Shown: piece after piece, positions 42,645 through 49,312 of the stretch
Numbering within the stretch: position 1 is the first letter of the stretch
Layout of the letters: every line of letters begins with the position of its first letter
Source: an uncultured Bacteroidales bacterium
GTDB lineage: Bacteria; Bacteroidota; Bacteroidia; Bacteroidales; UBA7960
Reading direction: 5' to 3'
DNA length: 64,000 bases
NCBI GenBank assembly: GCA_964624065.1
Contig: CAZUWF010000002.1
Span: 68,261 to 132,260 of the forward strand
Program-made: the position numbers and the translations under genes
The notes under the pieces: model-generated
Seen by the model: only the letters and a program-made list of their open reading frames with translations
What the model was told of the DNA's origin: nothing
Database searches by the model: none

Positions 42645-43838
42645 CTACACTCGCTCCAAAGCGATAGAAATACCTTGTCCCACACCAATACACATCGTGC
42701 AAAGTGCCCTCCTTTTGCTTGTGGCTAAAAGTTGATGGTAGGCCGTTGTCACAAGCCTTGCCCCACTCATACCCAAAGGGTGACCAAGGGCTATTGCACC
42801 GCCTAGCGGATTTATTCTTGGGTCGTTGTCGTGGAGCCCAAGTTGTCGGGTGCAGCCCAGCACTTGAGCTGCAAATGCCTCGTTTATCTCGATTATATCG
42901 AAATCGTCTAAGGTCAGTTTCAGTAACTTGAGTAGTTTTTTGGTTGCCGGTACAGGCCCCAGTCCCATTGTGCGGGGTGCTACCCCTGCAGTTGCCATCG
43001 CAAGGATTCGAACCTTGGGCCTCAATCCAAACCGCCTTACCGCCTCTTCTGAAGCCACAAATAGCGCGGCAGCACCATCGTTAATTCCAGAAGCATTACC
43101 TGCCGTGATGGTCTTGGTTAGGGGTTTAAGGGCGGCAAGCTTTTCTAATGATGAAAGCCTGGGGTGCTCGTCCAAATTGACTAAAACAGGGTCACCTTGG
43201 CGCTGGGGAAAGGATACAGCTAACATTTCGCTTTCAAAACTTCCGATGTCCTGAGCCAGTTTGGTTTTCTCTTGGCTCCATTGGGCAAACTTGTCTTGGT
43301 CTTCCCTGCTAATGCTCATCTCCTGTGCTATGTTTTCGGCGGTTTCCATCATACTCTCGGTTCCGTAAAGTTTGTCCAAGTTTTTGTTGACGAACCTCCA
43401 GCCAAGTGTTGTGTCGTATAGTTTCACATCTCGCGAAAAAGCTGTGGTGGCCTTGTCCATAACAAATGGAGCCCTCGACATGCTCTCAACACCCCCGGCG
43501 ACCAATAGATCGGCTTCCCCGGCCTTGATTGCCCTTGCAGCTGTGCCAATAGCATCCATTCCTGAGCCACATAAACGGTTTATGGTTGCGCCTGGTATAG
43601 ATTCGGGAAGTCCAGATAGCAGCGAAGCCATACGAGCAATGTTGCGATTGTCCTCGCCTGCCTGGTTTGCACAACCCATAATCACATCGTCAATTGATAG
43701 TGGGTCAATGCCAGGATTTCTTGCTACCAGGGCATTAATTACATGGGCAGCCAGATCATCGGGCCTGACCTCTGCCAGTTTACCGCCATAGCGGCCGATT
43801 GGGGTACGCAACGCGTCAATAATGTAAACGGGGTTCAT
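42645..43838 (-). CDS. Thiolase (acetyl-CoA C-acyl/acetyltransferase)
   Basis: 397 aa. NRLCGSGMDAI (nucleophilic Cys), NEAFAAQVL, GHPLGMSGARL and CIGVGQGIS. Confidence 0.92.
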   Translation of the reverse strand: MNPVYIIDALRTPIGRYGGKLAEVRPDDLAAHVINALVARNPGIDPLSIDDVIMGCANQAGEDNRNIARMASLLSGLPESIPGATINRLCGSGMDAIGTAARAIKAGEADLLVAGGVESMSRAPFVMDKATTAFSRDVKLYDTTLGWRFVNKNLDKLYGTESMMETAENIAQEMSISREDQDKFAQWSQEKTKLAQDIGSFESEMLAVSFPQRQGDPVLVNLDEHPRLSSLEKLAALKPLTKTITAGNASGINDGAAALFVASEEAVRRFGLRPKVRILAMATAGVAPRTMGLGPVPATKKLLKLLKLTLDDFDIIEINEAFAAQVLGCTRQLGLHDNDPRINPLGGAIALGHPLGMSGARLVTTAYHQLLATSKRRALCTMCIGVGQGISIALERV

Positions 43839-43846
43839 AACGTTGT

Positions 43847-45175
43847 TTATTTTTGAATTTCCTCAATCCTAGGTTTGAAAACCTTGAAGGCTTTGAACAC
43901 ACCGTGCACCAGATGATCAATTTCTTTTTGTGTCATCACGGTTGAAAACATACATGCAAAAGTATTTATCATCATTATTTTTTCCTCGTGGTAAAGGTAG
44001 TCAAGAACATCATTTACGAGGGTTGCTGCATCTTGCTTTTGGTAGGCCTCACGATAGGTGGTTGGCGGGGTTGGTCTGAAGTGGAATCTGAACATAGAGC
44101 CAGCACCTGTTATCGAAACTTGCACATCGGCCGCCCTAATGGCTTCTTCAAGTTGACCGATGGCGGTTTGGGTTAAACTGTTAAGGTCTTCAACTGCTTT
44201 TTGGTCAAACAACTCCATAGCAACCCTACCTGCAGTGGTGGTAATTGGATTTGCCGAAAATGTTCCGGAAAACGGAAATAGGAGCTTGCTCTCACCAGGG
44301 TCTAGCACTTTCATAATTTCGGCTTTCCCGCCAAAAGCACCCACCGGAAAACCTCCACCGATTATCTTGCCCATCGCTGTCATATCAGGCATTACCGAGT
44401 ATCTTTCTTGGGCACCTCCGTATCCAACCCTCAAGGTAACAACCTCATCGAACAGCAACAATGCCCCATTTTTCTCTGTCCATGCTTTCAGGGCTTCCAC
44501 AAAGTCATTGGTAGCGGGTAGTAGGCCTACCCTATGTGGTACTGGGTCAATGAGCACTGCGGCAATTTTGTCTGCCTGCCTGTCAAGTATGGTCAGGGTG
44601 CGTTCAATGTCGTTATAGGGAAATATAATCACATCGTCCAAGACCCCTTGCGGGGTGGCAAAAGAGAGCGGAACGCTGTTGGGGCTATCTATACTTCCCC
44701 AATTTGCGGGGCTTGAAGTTTGGCTAATTTCAGCAAAGTCGTAAGTTCCGTGGTATGCCCCTTCGGCCTTTGCAATTTTCGGACGGCCGGTGAATGCCCT
44801 TGCAGCTTTAATCATTGCCATAACGGCTTCGGTACCCGAATTGGTAAAGCGAAGCTTATCAACACTTTTAACCCTGCCACACAGTTGCTGTGCATGTGCA
44901 ACCTCAGCCTCGGTGGCCATGGTGTAAGCCGTGCCGCGGGCAACTTGCTCGATTACCGCCTCAACAATTGCTGGGTGGGCGTGACCGTGAATGAGCGATG
45001 CCATATTGTTGGCAAAGTCAGCCCTTTTAATGCCATCAATGTCGGTAACGTAGCTTCCCGAGGCGTGGGCAGCGTAAAAGGGGTGAGGTTTGTGGTAAAT
45101 CGTGTTGCGACTAACGCCGCCGGCAATAACCTTGCAGGCCTCTGCGTAAATTTCTGGTGCGGTTTTTAGGGCCAT
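43847..45175 (-). CDS. Class III (GSAM-like) PLP aminotransferase, candidate beta-amino acid / beta-aminoacyl-CoA transaminase
   Basis: GGVSRN, FTNSGTEAVMAMIKAAR, FDEVVT and MGKIIGGGFPVGAFGG (PLP lysine) give overall glutamate-1-semialdehyde aminomutase-like architecture. The gene sits between the CoA-transferase and thiolase genes. Confidence 0.85.
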   Translation of the reverse strand: MALKTAPEIYAEACKVIAGGVSRNTIYHKPHPFYAAHASGSYVTDIDGIKRADFANNMASLIHGHAHPAIVEAVIEQVARGTAYTMATEAEVAHAQQLCGRVKSVDKLRFTNSGTEAVMAMIKAARAFTGRPKIAKAEGAYHGTYDFAEISQTSSPANWGSIDSPNSVPLSFATPQGVLDDVIIFPYNDIERTLTILDRQADKIAAVLIDPVPHRVGLLPATNDFVEALKAWTEKNGALLLFDEVVTLRVGYGGAQERYSVMPDMTAMGKIIGGGFPVGAFGGKAEIMKVLDPGESKLLFPFSGTFSANPITTTAGRVAMELFDQKAVEDLNSLTQTAIGQLEEAIRAADVQVSITGAGSMFRFHFRPTPPTTYREAYQKQDAATLVNDVLDYLYHEEKIMMINTFACMFSTVMTQKEIDHLVHGVFKAFKVFKPRIEEIQK

Positions 45176-45253: not shown

Positions 45254-45907
45254 TTAGTTCATCAAGCTCAATTTCGGTTCCGTGCGATCTTGCAGGTACT
45301 CCAAGGTAACTCCCGGAGCCATTTCTTTTACCACAAGTCCTTCGGATGTAATGTCAATTACCGCCAAATCTGAATAAATTCTGCTAACGACGCCCTTTCC
45401 CGTCAAGGGGTATGAGCATTGGTTTACAATTTTGGGTTCTTCGGTTTTTGTGGTATGTTGGGTCATCACAAATATTGTCTTGACACCTTGCACCAAGTCC
45501 ATAGCCCCACCAACGGCGGGTATTGCGTTGGGAGCGCCCGTTGACCAGTTTGCAATGTCGCCTTGGGCCGATACTTGAAACGCCCCTAAAACGCAGATGT
45601 CAATGTGGCCTCCTCTAACCATGGCAAAACTGTCGGCGTGGTGAAAGAAACTTGCCCCTTTAATTGCTGTTATCGGTTTTTTGCCAGCGTTTATAAGTTC
45701 ATCGTTCTCAAGGCCGGGTAGGGGAGAGGGACCAATTCCCAATAACCCGTTTTCGGTGTGGAAAATTACCTCCCTACCCTCGGGAATGTGGTTTGCCACT
45801 AGCTCCGGCATTCCTATACCCAGGTTTACGTATGCTCCATCGGGAATGTCTTTGGCTATTTTTGCAGCCATTTCATCCCGGGTCCATTTTCTTATCTCGG
45901 TGCTCAT
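45254..45907 (-). CDS. 3-oxoacid CoA-transferase subunit B
   Basis: 217 aa. HTENGLLG contains the catalytic Glu (ENG motif). It overlaps subunit A by 4 nt. Confidence 0.92.
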   Translation of the reverse strand: MSTEIRKWTRDEMAAKIAKDIPDGAYVNLGIGMPELVANHIPEGREVIFHTENGLLGIGPSPLPGLENDELINAGKKPITAIKGASFFHHADSFAMVRGGHIDICVLGAFQVSAQGDIANWSTGAPNAIPAVGGAMDLVQGVKTIFVMTQHTTKTEEPKIVNQCSYPLTGKGVVSRIYSDLAVIDITSEGLVVKEMAPGVTLEYLQDRTEPKLSLMN

Positions 45908-46614
45908 GGATACCTCCTTTGTTCTTTTAGAAGTTGATTCTCGCTAACAGGGTTGGGAACGTGAACTACTTTCTTGACGAAAATACCCGGTGTTACAACT
46001 ATTTCGGGGTCAATTTGTCCGGGCTCCACTATTTCGGAAGCCTGAACAATTGCCGACTTGGCACCCATACACATTACGGGTCCGAAGTTTCTGGCAGTCT
46101 TGTTGAAGAGTAGATTGCCATACCTGTCGGCGGTTTTGCATTTTACCAGCGAAAAATCTGCCTTTATGCCATATTCCATCACGTATGGCTTACCGTTAAA
46201 CTCGCGAATAGGTTTGCCTTCGGCCAATGGAGTGTTAACCGATGTAGGTGTGAAGAATGCTGGAATTCCGGCACCACCCGCTCTAATTCGCTCTGCGAGG
46301 GTTCCTTGGGGAACAAGTTCGAGTTCAATCTCGCCCTTGACGTACAATTCGGGAAATACCACTGAATCGGCGGTTCGCGGAAAGGAGCAAATCATTTTTT
46401 TTACTTGCCTGTTGGCAATTAACGCGGCCAGTCCAACGTATCCGTTGCCTGTGTTGTTACTAACCACCGTTAGATTCTTTGCCCCGTGGTCAATGAGGGC
46501 GTGGATTAATTCTATGGGGCTTCCTGCCTCGCCAAAGCCGCTTATCATTACGGTGGCTCCGTCAAATATTCCTGATACTGCTTCGTGAGGCGAACCTACA
46601 ATCTTGTTTATCAT
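45904..46614 (-). CDS. 3-oxoacid CoA-transferase subunit A
   Basis: 236 aa. GATVMISGFGEAGSPIELIHAL and ELELVPQGTLAERIRAGGAGIPAFFT are typical of ScoA/AtoD. Confidence 0.92.
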   Translation of the reverse strand: MINKIVGSPHEAVSGIFDGATVMISGFGEAGSPIELIHALIDHGAKNLTVVSNNTGNGYVGLAALIANRQVKKMICSFPRTADSVVFPELYVKGEIELELVPQGTLAERIRAGGAGIPAFFTPTSVNTPLAEGKPIREFNGKPYVMEYGIKADFSLVKCKTADRYGNLLFNKTARNFGPVMCMGAKSAIVQASEIVEPGQIDPEIVVTPGIFVKKVVHVPNPVSENQLLKEQRRYP

Positions 46615-46631
46615 GAATGAATTATTCTGGG

Positions 46632-48188
46632 TTACTTTTTCTTACGACCTTCTTTTATGGATTCTTCCAGTTTGTTTTCAATGCGGGCAAGCTCCTCCTC
46701 GTAAAAATGACTGTCGTTTTTGTAGGGTTTTAGGTTTACGATGGTATTTTCCTTTTCATCGTAATGGGCGAGGTAAACCTTGTCCATCCACTCCATATTT
46801 CGACCTTCGTTAAACTTAAGGGCAAATAGTTTCTCTCCCGGCAAGTCAACCGTACCTAATAAGGAAATCTTACCAGCCGATGAAGTTTGGGTAATGTACC
46901 TCGAGGGGCGGCTCAAAGAAGGCAGCTCTCGGTAAATCTTGCTGAAAATCTTGTCTATCTCGGCTACTGGCTGGTTAAAGTAGTGAAACTCTCCCGTGGG
47001 CCTGGCAAGGTACATCGAGTGGAATCCAACACCAAGCATCGAAAGAACATTGCCCAAATCAATCCAGTTTTGTGCCGATCTATCAACATCAACCTCGCCA
47101 TTTTCTTTGGTGAAAAGGCTAATGTGGTTCATCACGGGGCTTTGACTCTTTATGGTAACTCCGTGTGCTTTGAGCCTCCTAATGGCTGCAATGGTACTCA
47201 GGTTTAGAACTTCGCGCGGGGTTGAAAAATGCGACATGAAAGCCAGTTGTATACCGTTGTCATACAGCTTTTTAAAAAGCTTGAGCATTGGGTCAAATTC
47301 GGGTGTGATAACATATTCTGGATGGAATGTCAACACTCTTGTTCCCAACCTGATAGTTTTTATGTGGTTTAGGTCTTTTCGTTCTATTATGGGGTTAATG
47401 TACTCTGCAAATCGCTCAGGTTTCAAGTAACCTGCGTCACCTCCCGTAATAAGTAAATCGGTTACTTCCTTGTGGTCTTTAAGGTATTCGTGAATTTGGT
47501 TAACGTCTTTTTGCAAGAACATATCATCATCGCCGCGTACCTGTGCATGTCTGAAACAGTAGTTGCAAAAGGCAAAGCAATTCTGGGTTTGAACGTCGAA
47601 AACAAGCTTGCATTGAGGGTACTTGTGCTGGCTACCTTCTACAACTTCAACCTCCCCGTCTTCGTTAATAAACGTTGGTTTGTTAAGCTGCTGCTTGCCA
47701 TCGTGCGGATTGGTTTCCTTGATGTAATCCTTCACAATCTGGTCTTTTTCCTCTTCGGTTTTTGCCGCAAGGTAAGCCTTTGTAACATCCTGCCTTATCA
47801 TTCCTGGTTGCGGAAAAACAAGTTGAAAAACCGAGTCCTTTTCAAACTTTGCCCACTTGATGGTGTTGAGAACGTGCTTGGTGGCCATAAACCTGTAAAC
47901 CTTGATGAAGAGTTCACGTTCTTGGTGGTGACCAATGTCGAAACCATTTTCTTCGAGGATTTTCACGATTTCTCTGTAACCTTTAAGACCACTGTATTTG
48001 GGCTTGTCGGTAAAGTGGAATACCTCCTCTTCGGCAATACCTGAATGCTGTGGATAGGCTGCCTGCAATCGATTCAAAACGCCTACCGGAAGAAGGTTCT
48101 CCTTTTCAATTATTTCCCTGGTTTCGGAACTGTAGTTGTACCGGTCAATCAGTGCTTGGCACTTTTGTGGTGAGATGATTTGATTCAT
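46632..48188 (-). CDS. KamA-family radical SAM / PLP 2,3-aminomutase homologue (atypical, long form)
   Basis: CFAFCNYC (CxxxCxxC cluster), LITGGDA and SSAGK (candidate PLP lysine). Collinear by eye with lysine 2,3-aminomutase but with a longer N-terminus and an internal insertion. ATG 48188 is preferred over the track TTG at 48260 because a -7 box sits at 48258-48265. Confidence 0.85.
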   Translation of the reverse strand: MNQIISPQKCQALIDRYNYSSETREIIEKENLLPVGVLNRLQAAYPQHSGIAEEEVFHFTDKPKYSGLKGYREIVKILEENGFDIGHHQERELFIKVYRFMATKHVLNTIKWAKFEKDSVFQLVFPQPGMIRQDVTKAYLAAKTEEEKDQIVKDYIKETNPHDGKQQLNKPTFINEDGEVEVVEGSQHKYPQCKLVFDVQTQNCFAFCNYCFRHAQVRGDDDMFLQKDVNQIHEYLKDHKEVTDLLITGGDAGYLKPERFAEYINPIIERKDLNHIKTIRLGTRVLTFHPEYVITPEFDPMLKLFKKLYDNGIQLAFMSHFSTPREVLNLSTIAAIRRLKAHGVTIKSQSPVMNHISLFTKENGEVDVDRSAQNWIDLGNVLSMLGVGFHSMYLARPTGEFHYFNQPVAEIDKIFSKIYRELPSLSRPSRYITQTSSAGKISLLGTVDLPGEKLFALKFNEGRNMEWMDKVYLAHYDEKENTIVNLKPYKNDSHFYEEELARIENKLEESIKEGRKKK

Positions 48189-48257: not shown

Positions 48258-48265
48258 CAAATTTA
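48258..48265 (-). promoter_or_regulatory. Candidate -7 box (TAAATTTG) for the KamA-like operon
   Basis: The reverse strand matches TAnnTTTG 70 nt upstream of ATG 48188. No other box lies before the four downstream genes. Confidence 0.4.
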
Positions 48266-48488: not shown

Positions 48489-49268
48489 TTAATCCAATTT
48501 AATTATAAACCTATCCGCATCCAACCAAACCGGAAATTTGTCCCTGAATCTATTTAGTTCTTCAAGGTCGAGTTGAGCTGTAAAAAGCTCTTGGGAATCA
48601 TTGGTTGCCTTGTACAATTCCTTTCCTTTAGGGTCAATGACCATAGACTCACCAAGGTATTGAAGCCCGTTGCCATCAGTGCCAACCCTATTCACTGCCA
48701 CCACGTAGCATTGATTCTCCACAGCGCGGGCGCAAAGCAAGGTTTTCCAAACTTCATGTCTGGGCGCCGGCCAGTTGGCCACCAAGAAAATGGCATCGTA
48801 GTCGTTTTGGTTGCGCAGCCAAACAGGAAACCTCAAGTCGTAGCAAATTGCAAGCAGTATTCGAAGGTTTGCGTGTTGTATCACCACCCGTCGGTTACCT
48901 GCGTTGAATGCCCCTCCTTCCCTTTCGAAAACAAAAAGGTGCCTCTTGTCGTAATAACTAATCTTTCCGTTGGGCTCGACCCACACAAACCTGTTGAAGG
49001 TTTTTTCAGCATCCCTAACAGTAAGCGAGCCCCCAATGGCAAATCCGGTGGTGTTTGAAATTTTGTTCATCCAGCCAATCGTACGACCATGCATAGTTTC
49101 GGCAAACTTGGCTTTGTTCATCGTAAAACCAGTTGAGAACATTTCTGGTAGCAACACGGAGTTGGTTGACCTTGGAGATTTTAATATTTTCTCCTCAAGG
49201 TCGAAGAGGTTTTTGTCAACGTCCTCCCAGTGTGTGTTTGGCTGTATTATGGTTACTTTATACGACAT
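48489..49268 (-). CDS. Carbon-nitrogen hydrolase (nitrilase superfamily; omega-amidase/YafV-like)
   Basis: Glu-Lys-Cys triad contexts LLPEMF, YDKRHLF and LAICYDLRFP. The ATG is at 49268. Confidence 0.85.
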   Translation of the reverse strand: MSYKVTIIQPNTHWEDVDKNLFDLEEKILKSPRSTNSVLLPEMFSTGFTMNKAKFAETMHGRTIGWMNKISNTTGFAIGGSLTVRDAEKTFNRFVWVEPNGKISYYDKRHLFVFEREGGAFNAGNRRVVIQHANLRILLAICYDLRFPVWLRNQNDYDAIFLVANWPAPRHEVWKTLLCARAVENQCYVVAVNRVGTDGNGLQYLGESMVIDPKGKELYKATNDSQELFTAQLDLEELNRFRDKFPVWLDADRFIIKLD

Positions 49269-49304
49269 GAAGTGGGTTGGGTTAAGGGATTGGGTAATTA
49301 TTTG

Positions 49305-49312
49305 CAAAGGTA
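49305..49312 (-). promoter_or_regulatory. Candidate -7 box (TACCTTTG) for the C-N hydrolase gene
   Basis: The reverse strand matches TAnnTTTG 37 nt upstream of ATG 49268. Confidence 0.45.

Follow-up and report, generated by a model that had tools for sequence, protein, structure and literature searches.

Enzymes of the KamA fold, which combine a radical S-adenosylmethionine (SAM) cluster with pyridoxal phosphate (PLP), are the closest described relatives of the protein considered here. The positions that contact the lysine epsilon-ammonium group in lysine 2,3-aminomutase (LAM) from Clostridium subterminale SB4 (PDB 2A5H) were reportedly described by Lepore et al. in 2005. At these positions, Asp293 and Asp330 in LAM numbering, the LAMs that were fetched have Asp and Asp, E. 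coli EpmB has Asp and Glu, and glutamate 2,3-aminomutase, as Ruzicka and Frey are said to have found in 2007, has Lys and Asn; we know of no catabolic operon for glutamate 2,3-aminomutases. Here we describe a gene for a KamA-like protein in the window (the whole stretch of DNA that was analyzed, 64,000 nucleotides from an uncultured Bacteroidales bacterium). This protein, referred to below as the aminomutase, is probably an amino acid 2,3-aminomutase that uses radical SAM and PLP and belongs to a distinct KamA-like family, and its sequence supports the view that it is not a lysine enzyme and represents a distinct substrate class. On balance, we favor its assignment as an L-2-aminoadipate 2,3-aminomutase, which would give 3-aminoadipate.

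Residue map and family position of the aminomutase

The LAM reference was the Clostridium subterminale sequence, which shows 100% identity with chain A of PDB 2a5h. A plain phmmer alignment to 2a5h was rejected as a route to the Asp293 region because it ends at residue 354, before that region, and the C-terminal half was therefore aligned by MAFFT with bridging sequences (L-INS-i, 11 family members plus 62 bridging relatives) and by profile–profile comparison with hhalign (a 27-sequence family profile versus a LAM/KamA profile). The hhalign alignment covers residues 96–443 against LAM 53–340 (probability 99.9%, E 2e-32, ~290 columns, ~24% identity), and the two methods yield one identical residue map. 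In this map the radical-SAM cluster motif, the GGD motif and the PLP-binding Lys are all kept in KamA register and are all invariant in the family, so that the alignment made by eye in the initial annotation of this DNA was right for these three elements. Gln349 and Tyr393 correspond to LAM Gln258 and Tyr290, and the column of Arg213, the counterpart of the LAM Arg that binds the alpha-carboxylate, is invariant in the family and is occupied by Arg in 54 of the 62 distant relatives.

The same annotation had also read both epsilon-amino-binding Asp residues as missing, and both methods agree: Arg396 and Thr433 stand in those columns, and no acidic residue is found in either. Two of its details were misplaced, however. 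Asp293 had been paired with an Ala next to an Arg, which is off by one, as the aligned residue is Arg396 itself and not Ala395; and the residue aligned with Asp330, given there as Ser, is Thr433. Arg396 is invariant (27/27 family members), with a register fixed by Tyr-Tyr and by a PYY...R..TG motif seen in the bridging sequences, and position 433 is Thr in 24 of the 27 members and Ser in 3.

By homology to the epsilon-ammonium contacts of 2A5H, Arg396 and Thr433 would lie at the distal end of the pocket and, because both Asp residues are replaced by Arg396 and Thr/Ser433, this end should accept an anionic group. An anionic distal group is further supported by the comparison across described enzymes, as the lysine-acting enzymes are acidic at these positions and a glutamate-like protein is cationic. 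The latter protein, a near-glutamate 2,3-aminomutase from locus L103 (591 bits versus a cut-off of 650), has Lys at 293 and Thr at 330; no glutamate 2,3-aminomutase above the TIGR04368 cut-off was found in 88 genomes of the phylum of genome G401, where 591 versus 650 is the best score. The suggestion that a third residue pattern marks a third substrate class thus stands as far as a distinct non-lysine class is concerned, but the pattern is not of a wholly new type, because L103 has Lys/Thr at the same positions.

Curated models place the aminomutase well below their cut-offs: TIGR00238 (KamA family) gives 80 bits versus 199.2, TIGR03820 (LAM, EC 5.4.3.2) 75.4 versus 525.4, TIGR04368 (glutamate 2,3-aminomutase) 70.2 versus 650, TIGR04468 (arginine 2,3-aminomutase) 69.3 versus 600, and TIGR03821 (EpmB) 53.6 versus 369.3. 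None of the curated models covers the family, and the aminomutase would thus appear to have KamA-type catalytic features while falling outside the curated KamA family boundary. The family comprises 1395 matches, the best 120 clusters of which are 64–93% identical and mostly 517–547 residues long, and its members carry the source names "hypothetical protein" or "lysine 2,3-aminomutase" (JGI names for several). Relatives are encoded in 461 species-level genomes from several phyla. Beyond the family, an exhaustive search among representatives clustered at 50% identity found the next relatives at 34–40% identity, also below the TIGR00238 cut-off.

A maximum-likelihood tree of 61 sequences recovers the family as monophyletic (SH-aLRT 100, stem 0.78), within a diverse uncharacterized KamA-like supergroup. 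LAM, EpmB of E. coli and the proteins that pass TIGR00238 lie outside this supergroup, across a branch whose SH-aLRT is 100; the family is therefore a separate clade and is not nested inside bona fide LAMs. Such nesting, like acidic residues at the epsilon-amino-binding positions, had been named in the initial annotation as an outcome that would refute its view. Columns 293–294 are usually Arg-Asp in the distant supergroup and Arg-Pro in the aminomutase family, and the alignment indicates that Arg at the 293 column is an ancestral supergroup trait, not a family-specific determinant. No distant supergroup member matched any curated equivalog, and the distant relatives P0124, P0130 and a ~440-residue Bacteroidales paralogue have no cassette of the kind described below and no conserved neighbors. 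A second KamA-like family of ~435–445 residues, 32–38% identical to the aminomutase, occurs in about 70 of 401 sampled Bacteroidales genomes as a stand-alone gene of the same supergroup, sometimes alongside the cassette; examples are L099:8030-9361 (G029), L100:8113-9420 (G286), L101:8161-9468 (G172) and L102:7860-9194 (G026).

The family alignment was used to build an AlphaFold2 model, with a predicted local distance difference test score (pLDDT) of 80.7 and a predicted template modeling score of 0.84. In a Foldseek search of PDB, LAM 2a5h is the best match (E 4e-14, TM-score 0.64, target-normalized), the next matches having E >1e-3, and it is the sole significant PDB match both by sequence (E 3e-15) and by fold. 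The first cluster Cys of the aminomutase is residue 204, versus 125 in LAM, an N-terminal offset of 79 residues that is close to the ~80 noted initially, and this offset comprises ~43 extra terminal residues and an inserted segment that carries the motif TNPHDGKQxLNKP; the ~12-residue insertion described before the LARPTGE segment is likewise found, at Ser357–Val368. The TNPHDGKQxLNKP segment, modeled with pLDDT <50 at residues 163–169, may serve as a lid over the active site or as a loop for a cofactor. At the C-terminus, no PF12544 (LAM_C, Zn-cysteine domain) match was found in the aminomutase, while this domain is present in all LAMs checked; LAM Cys268 aligns with Ser371, and the hhalign alignment ends at residue 443.

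If the chemistry follows that of LAM, a [4Fe-4S] cluster on Cys204, Cys208 and Cys211 would cleave SAM to a 5'-deoxyadenosyl radical, which would abstract the beta-hydrogen of a substrate held as an external aldimine on PLP released from Lys440, and the imine nitrogen would then move from C2 to C3 in an azacyclopropylcarbinyl-type migration. The alpha-carboxylate would be held by Arg213 as in LAM, and Arg396, with Thr433, would pair with the omega-carboxylate of L-2-aminoadipate.

The conserved cassette and the proposed substrate

The aminomutase gene heads a cassette in the order aminomutase, CoA-transferase A, CoA-transferase B, aminotransferase and thiolase, with intergenic gaps in the window of 17, −4, 78 and 8 nucleotides. 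Across a sample of 84 loci, in which the order was read wherever the contig reaches far enough, it is constant except at two loci without a detected thiolase. Carriers are found in Bacteroidales, Ignavibacteriae, Balneolales, Cloacimonadota, Elusimicrobia and Edwardsbacteria and in one deltaproteobacterial metagenome-assembled genome (MAG), and no other neighbor recurs in over 11 of the 84 loci. Among PDB entries, the best match of the aminotransferase (E 1.2e-111) is 6k8h, an omega-transaminase for beta/gamma-amino acids (PMC10589169), and that of CoA-transferase subunit A is the succinyl-CoA:3-ketoacid CoA-transferase 3cdk (E 8.5e-66). The thiolase matches the beta-ketoadipyl-CoA thiolase 6pca with 511 bits (E 1.7e-152) and acetoacetyl-CoA thiolases with ~317 bits.

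In combination, an amino shift, beta-transamination, CoA transfer and thiolysis would convert R-CH2-CH(NH2)-COOH to R-CO-SCoA and acetyl-CoA, and the PcaF-type thiolase together with the succinyl-CoA-dependent transferase suggests that R is carboxyethyl, i.e., that the substrate is 2-aminoadipate. The 3-aminoadipate formed would be converted to 3-oxoadipate by the cassette aminotransferase, 3-oxoadipate would be activated with succinyl-CoA by CoA-transferase A/B, and 3-oxoadipyl-CoA would be cleaved to succinyl-CoA and acetyl-CoA by the thiolase, provided that flux runs in this presumed direction. Since the succinyl-CoA from thiolysis would re-prime the transferase, the cassette would be chemically self-contained.

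The initial annotation had left a choice between a neutral or hydrophobic substrate and an acidic group bound by an Arg. The second option agrees with an invariant Arg as the aligned residue and with partners of the succinyl-CoA:3-oxoacid CoA-transferase and 3-oxoadipyl-CoA-type thiolase kinds; the first found no support. A neutral substrate such as leucine would pass through beta-leucine and beta-ketoisocaproate to isobutyryl-CoA and acetyl-CoA, along the lines of the route that Poston is said to have proposed, which has enzyme types as in the cassette. Transaminase, CoA-transferase and thiolase of these types would serve such a route as well, and the absence of both Asp residues would suit it, but an enzyme for hydrophobic side chains would not be expected to have an invariant Arg as its distal ligand, the types of the thiolase and CoA-transferase point to 3-oxoadipate and succinyl-CoA, and no branched-chain catabolic genes are among the linked neighbors in the 84 loci. 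We therefore regard this possibility as highly unlikely.

A source of 2-aminoadipate is suggested by genes that adjoin or accompany the cassette. At L009 and L010, where the aminomutase is 61% identical, the cassette is preceded by genes for a LysR regulator (divergent), an L-piperideine-6-carboxylate (P6C) dehydrogenase (798 bits versus a curated cut-off of 730) and a lysine-dehydrogenase-like protein of the PH1688 type. PH1688 (PDB 3ABI) is reportedly the lysine 6-dehydrogenase described by Yoneda et al. in 2010. At L083 (Cloacimonadota), two genes lie directly upstream of the aminomutase gene, one for a saccharopine dehydrogenase of the LYS9 type and one that is LKR-like and of the AlaDH/PNT type. 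Lysine would enter via saccharopine or via lysine 6-dehydrogenase, with aminoadipate semialdehyde then converted to 2-aminoadipate.

The window's own genome encodes homologues of both kinds. An intact LKR-like (AlaDH/PNT) gene (43% identity; G000:C6:81896-83203, L107:1492-2799) stops 14 nucleotides short of the end of contig C6, and a LYS9-type, saccharopine dehydrogenase-like (SDH-like) gene (G000:C43:11000-12334, L016:517-1854) starts 45 nucleotides from the end of contig C43; these are probably one saccharopine-pathway pair split by a contig break. A 376-residue PH1688 homologue (G000:C13:41282-42409, L017:1495-2625; E 2.7e-67 to 3ABI) is encoded on contig C13 between a PCMD-domain gene and gatB and is a candidate lysine 6-dehydrogenase. 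Among 401 sampled Bacteroidales genomes, 30 of which have the cassette, SDH-like genes occur in 29/30 cassette genomes versus 193/371 others (odds ratio 27, p 3e-7) and lysine dehydrogenase-like (LysDH-like) genes in 21/30 versus 108/371 (odds ratio 5.7, p 2e-5), by Fisher tests that ignore kinship. As for the classical beta-lysine fermentation, Kce (BKACE) has no match in the window's genome, which is estimated to be 100% complete; KamD (Lys-AminoMut_A) has none there either, although its model matched no control genome, so that its absence is not shown.

Such lysine-related dehydrogenases would also be expected to accompany a true lysine 2,3-aminomutase, with beta-lysine broken down through transamination, CoA transfer and then thiolysis, and the JGI names of homologues and LAM as the closest solved structure point the same way. 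This is nonetheless extremely improbable in our view, as neither epsilon-ammonium ligand is kept and a cation stands in place of one, the TIGR03820 score is far below its cut-off (75 versus 525 bits), the protein is not nested among LAMs, and the LAM_C/Zn domain is absent; moreover, thiolysis would yield 4-aminobutyryl-CoA, which is not expected from a PcaF-type thiolase.

A divergent glutamate 2,3-aminomutase would instead give beta-glutamate and then 3-oxoglutarate, which would be activated and either cleaved to malonyl-CoA and acetyl-CoA or decarboxylated to acetoacetyl-CoA. The cationic 293 and hydroxyl 330 positions are of the same type as the Lys/Thr of L103, glutamate is plentiful for protein-fermenting anaerobes, and the dehydrogenase that would form aminoadipate, undetected in the window's genome, would no longer be a problem; if this is correct, glutamate would be fermented by a new route. 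This reading is distinctly unlikely, however, given the TIGR04368 score (70 versus 650 bits), the place of the family outside the canonical KamA supergroup, a thiolase that passes 3-oxoadipyl-CoA equivalog cut-offs and is nearest to beta-ketoadipyl-CoA thiolase structures, a cassette without a malonyl-CoA-handling gene, and the two loci that tie the cassette to lysine-to-aminoadipate-semialdehyde genes, along with the co-occurrence of SDH- and LysDH-like genes.

Several observations weigh against L-2-aminoadipate as the substrate. Because L103 Lys/Thr is of the same type as Arg/Thr, the pocket residues by themselves do not tell glutamate and aminoadipate apart, and because Arg at the 293 column is also present in 39 of 62 distant supergroup representatives without the cassette, Arg alone cannot specify aminoadipate. 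Glu400, four residues after Arg396, is nearly invariant, and the modeled loops with Arg396 (396–399) and Ser436-Ser437 (435–438) have pLDDT <50. Lysine genes adjoin the cassette in only 2/84 locus types, and shared ancestry is left out of the co-occurrence tests. Curated P6C dehydrogenase is not significantly enriched in the same genome sample (11/30 versus 98/371, odds ratio 1.6, p 0.28), and no curated P6C/aminoadipate-semialdehyde dehydrogenase scores above its cut-off in the window's genome, where the best reaches 200 bits; the 2-aminoadipate-forming step is therefore left without an assigned gene in most carriers.

Part of this evidence would fit another anionic substrate, or a radical-SAM/PLP reaction besides the 2,3-amino shift, with Arg396 and Arg430 unrelated to side-chain recognition: both Arg residues are widespread in the uncharacterized supergroup, whose members mostly lack the cassette, and no supergroup member matched a curated equivalog. 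We consider this unlikely, since every catalytic feature of a 2,3-aminomutase is kept and the conserved partners add up to a closed route only when a beta-amino acid is formed first. The L-2-aminoadipate assignment is thus retained as the favored one. A broader proposal, which in our judgment falls a little short of even, joins this new activity to two further statements, namely that the cassette would be a third anaerobic lysine route, independent of oxygen and B12, and that the Arg-bearing supergroup would consist of anionic-amino-acid aminomutases. Full-text literature searches found no 2-aminoadipate aminomutase, 3-aminoadipate metabolism or this operon, although the term "2,3-aminomutase" was unsearchable owing to its comma.

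Gene boundaries and further features of the loci

The open reading frame of the aminomutase runs on the minus strand from an ATG at 48188 to a stop codon at 46632–46634, and in the family alignment its start Met matches that of close homologues. An alternative TTG start at 48260, giving a longer reading frame, was rejected because homologues begin at the ATG and a promoter-like box overlaps the TTG. This box, TAAATTTG, counts as weak evidence, its motif not being enriched window-wide (77 found versus 62 expected), and scans for sigma-70 promoters and terminators gave matches at or below chance. The locus is flanked by PorU/PorV type IX secretion genes, which places the window in Bacteroidota, and among public genomes the nearest is a MAG of an uncultured Bacteroidales bacterium (91% identity over the protein match). 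Features are collected in Table 1.

Table 1. Features of the aminomutase gene and its cassette, with positions in the window
Feature	Position	Strand	Basis or remark
KamA-like radical-SAM/PLP aminomutase gene, proposed 2-aminoadipate 2,3-aminomutase	46632..48188	-	518 aa; open reading frame and translation
N-terminal residues 1–95, without LAM counterpart, predicted helical	47904..48188	-	hhalign starts at residue 96 = LAM 53; high pLDDT
TNPHDGKQxLNKP, nearly invariant family-specific motif, residues 159–171	47676..47714	-	Inside insertion relative to LAM; unaligned in hhalign
CxxxCxxC radical-SAM cluster motif (CFAFCNYC), Cys204/208/211	47556..47579	-	= LAM Cys125/129/132; invariant in family; codons checked
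Arg213 = LAM Arg134 (alpha-carboxylate-binding Arg)	47550..47552	-	MAFFT and hhalign
Gly249-Gly250-Asp251, SAM-binding GGD motif	47436..47444	-	= LAM 170–172; invariant in family
12-residue insertion Ser357–Val368 (SLFTKENGEVDV)	47085..47120	-	hhalign gap between LAM Val265 and Asn266
Arg396 = LAM Asp293 (first epsilon-ammonium ligand)	47001..47003	-	MAFFT and hhalign; invariant
Thr433 = LAM Asp330 (second epsilon-ammonium ligand)	46890..46892	-	MAFFT and hhalign
Lys440 = PLP-binding LAM Lys337 (SSAGK)	46869..46871	-	MAFFT and hhalign; invariant in family
TAAATTTG, Bacteroidetes-type -7 promoter-like box	48258..48265	-	Pattern match; ~70 nucleotides 5' of ATG
3-Oxoacid CoA-transferase subunit A	45904..46614	-	TIGR02429, 341.7 bits versus cut-off 128.5
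3-Oxoacid CoA-transferase subunit B	45254..45907	-	TIGR02428, 303.7 bits versus cut-off 243.6
Class-III aminotransferase, GSAM/beta-transaminase group, proposed 3-aminoadipate transaminase	43847..45175	-	PF00202; below HemL cut-offs
3-Oxoadipyl-CoA-type thiolase	42645..43838	-	NF006551, 650.1 bits versus 605; TIGR02430 pcaF, 633.6 versus 597

On the same strand, 300 nucleotides upstream of the operon, lies a carbon-nitrogen hydrolase gene (48489–49307, minus strand; 265 bits versus a cut-off of 249 in the amidohydrolase PRK10438 model), which is not a conserved cassette neighbor in other loci. In 8 of the 84 loci a sodium:solute symporter gene lies directly upstream of the aminomutase gene (e.g., L025:8088-9530), and in 9 a PuuR-type helix-turn-helix and cupin regulator gene does (e.g., L077:9372-9926); these are a candidate pathway transporter and a candidate pathway regulator, but both were judged uninformative.

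Downstream variation was seen at a few loci. A B12-binding-domain radical-SAM gene follows the cassette at L009:13913-15268, and another stands at the usual place of the thiolase at L096:14648-16279, where no thiolase was found within 7 kb downstream; at L030 the thiolase is replaced by a MATE transporter. Directly 3' of the cassette in an Edwardsbacteria MAG (L004:13748-17127) are a homoisocitrate/isocitrate-dehydrogenase-like gene, which scores below cut-offs, and a gene for a 744-residue protein in which an HMG-CoA-lyase-like domain is fused to a family-III CoA-transferase.

Comparison with described enzymes and pathways

If the proposed function is correct, the aminomutase would represent a new substrate class for radical-SAM/PLP aminomutases and would provide a sequence rule in which acidic residues at both distal positions mark lysine enzymes, and a cation plus a hydroxyl mark acidic-substrate enzymes. 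It would also account for how lysine could serve many uncultured anaerobes as an energy source without the B12-dependent beta-lysine pathway of the classical kind, and would correct the annotation "lysine 2,3-aminomutase" or "hypothetical protein" of well over a thousand sequence clusters. The resulting enzymatic link from 2-aminoadipate to 3-oxoadipate would be of interest for bio-based adipate chemistry.

The aminomutase resembles LAM KamA of Clostridium subterminale SB4 in the CxxxCxxC motif, the GGD motif, the equivalent of Arg134 and the PLP Lys, but there are also differences: LAM has Asp293/Asp330 where the aminomutase has Arg396/Thr433, possesses the Zn C-terminal domain, lacks the offset and the insertion, belongs to a separate tree group and occurs in a different operon. 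EpmB/YjeK, the enzyme of EF-P beta-lysylation, likewise shares the KamA fold and the cofactor motifs, but it keeps acidic residues at both positions, and E. coli epmB adjoins efp, which is not part of the conserved cassette. Glutamate 2,3-aminomutase resembles the aminomutase in its cationic 293 position, although this is Lys rather than Arg, and the glutamate aminomutases group with canonical KamA proteins, whereas the aminomutase family does not.

Among the partner enzymes, the cassette aminotransferase matches beta-amino-acid/GSAM-like class-III transaminases (6K8H, 2YKU and 4AO9), with 6K8H closest; those enzymes are characterized on aromatic and aliphatic beta/gamma-amino acids, whereas use of 3-aminoadipate by the cassette enzyme is only proposed. 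Finally, the cassette CoA-transferase A/B and thiolase belong to the families of the lower beta-ketoadipate pathway (PcaIJ and PcaF). That pathway makes 3-oxoadipate by aromatic ring cleavage, whereas the cassette, whose hosts are mostly anaerobic uncultured lineages, would make it by transamination of a beta-amino acid.

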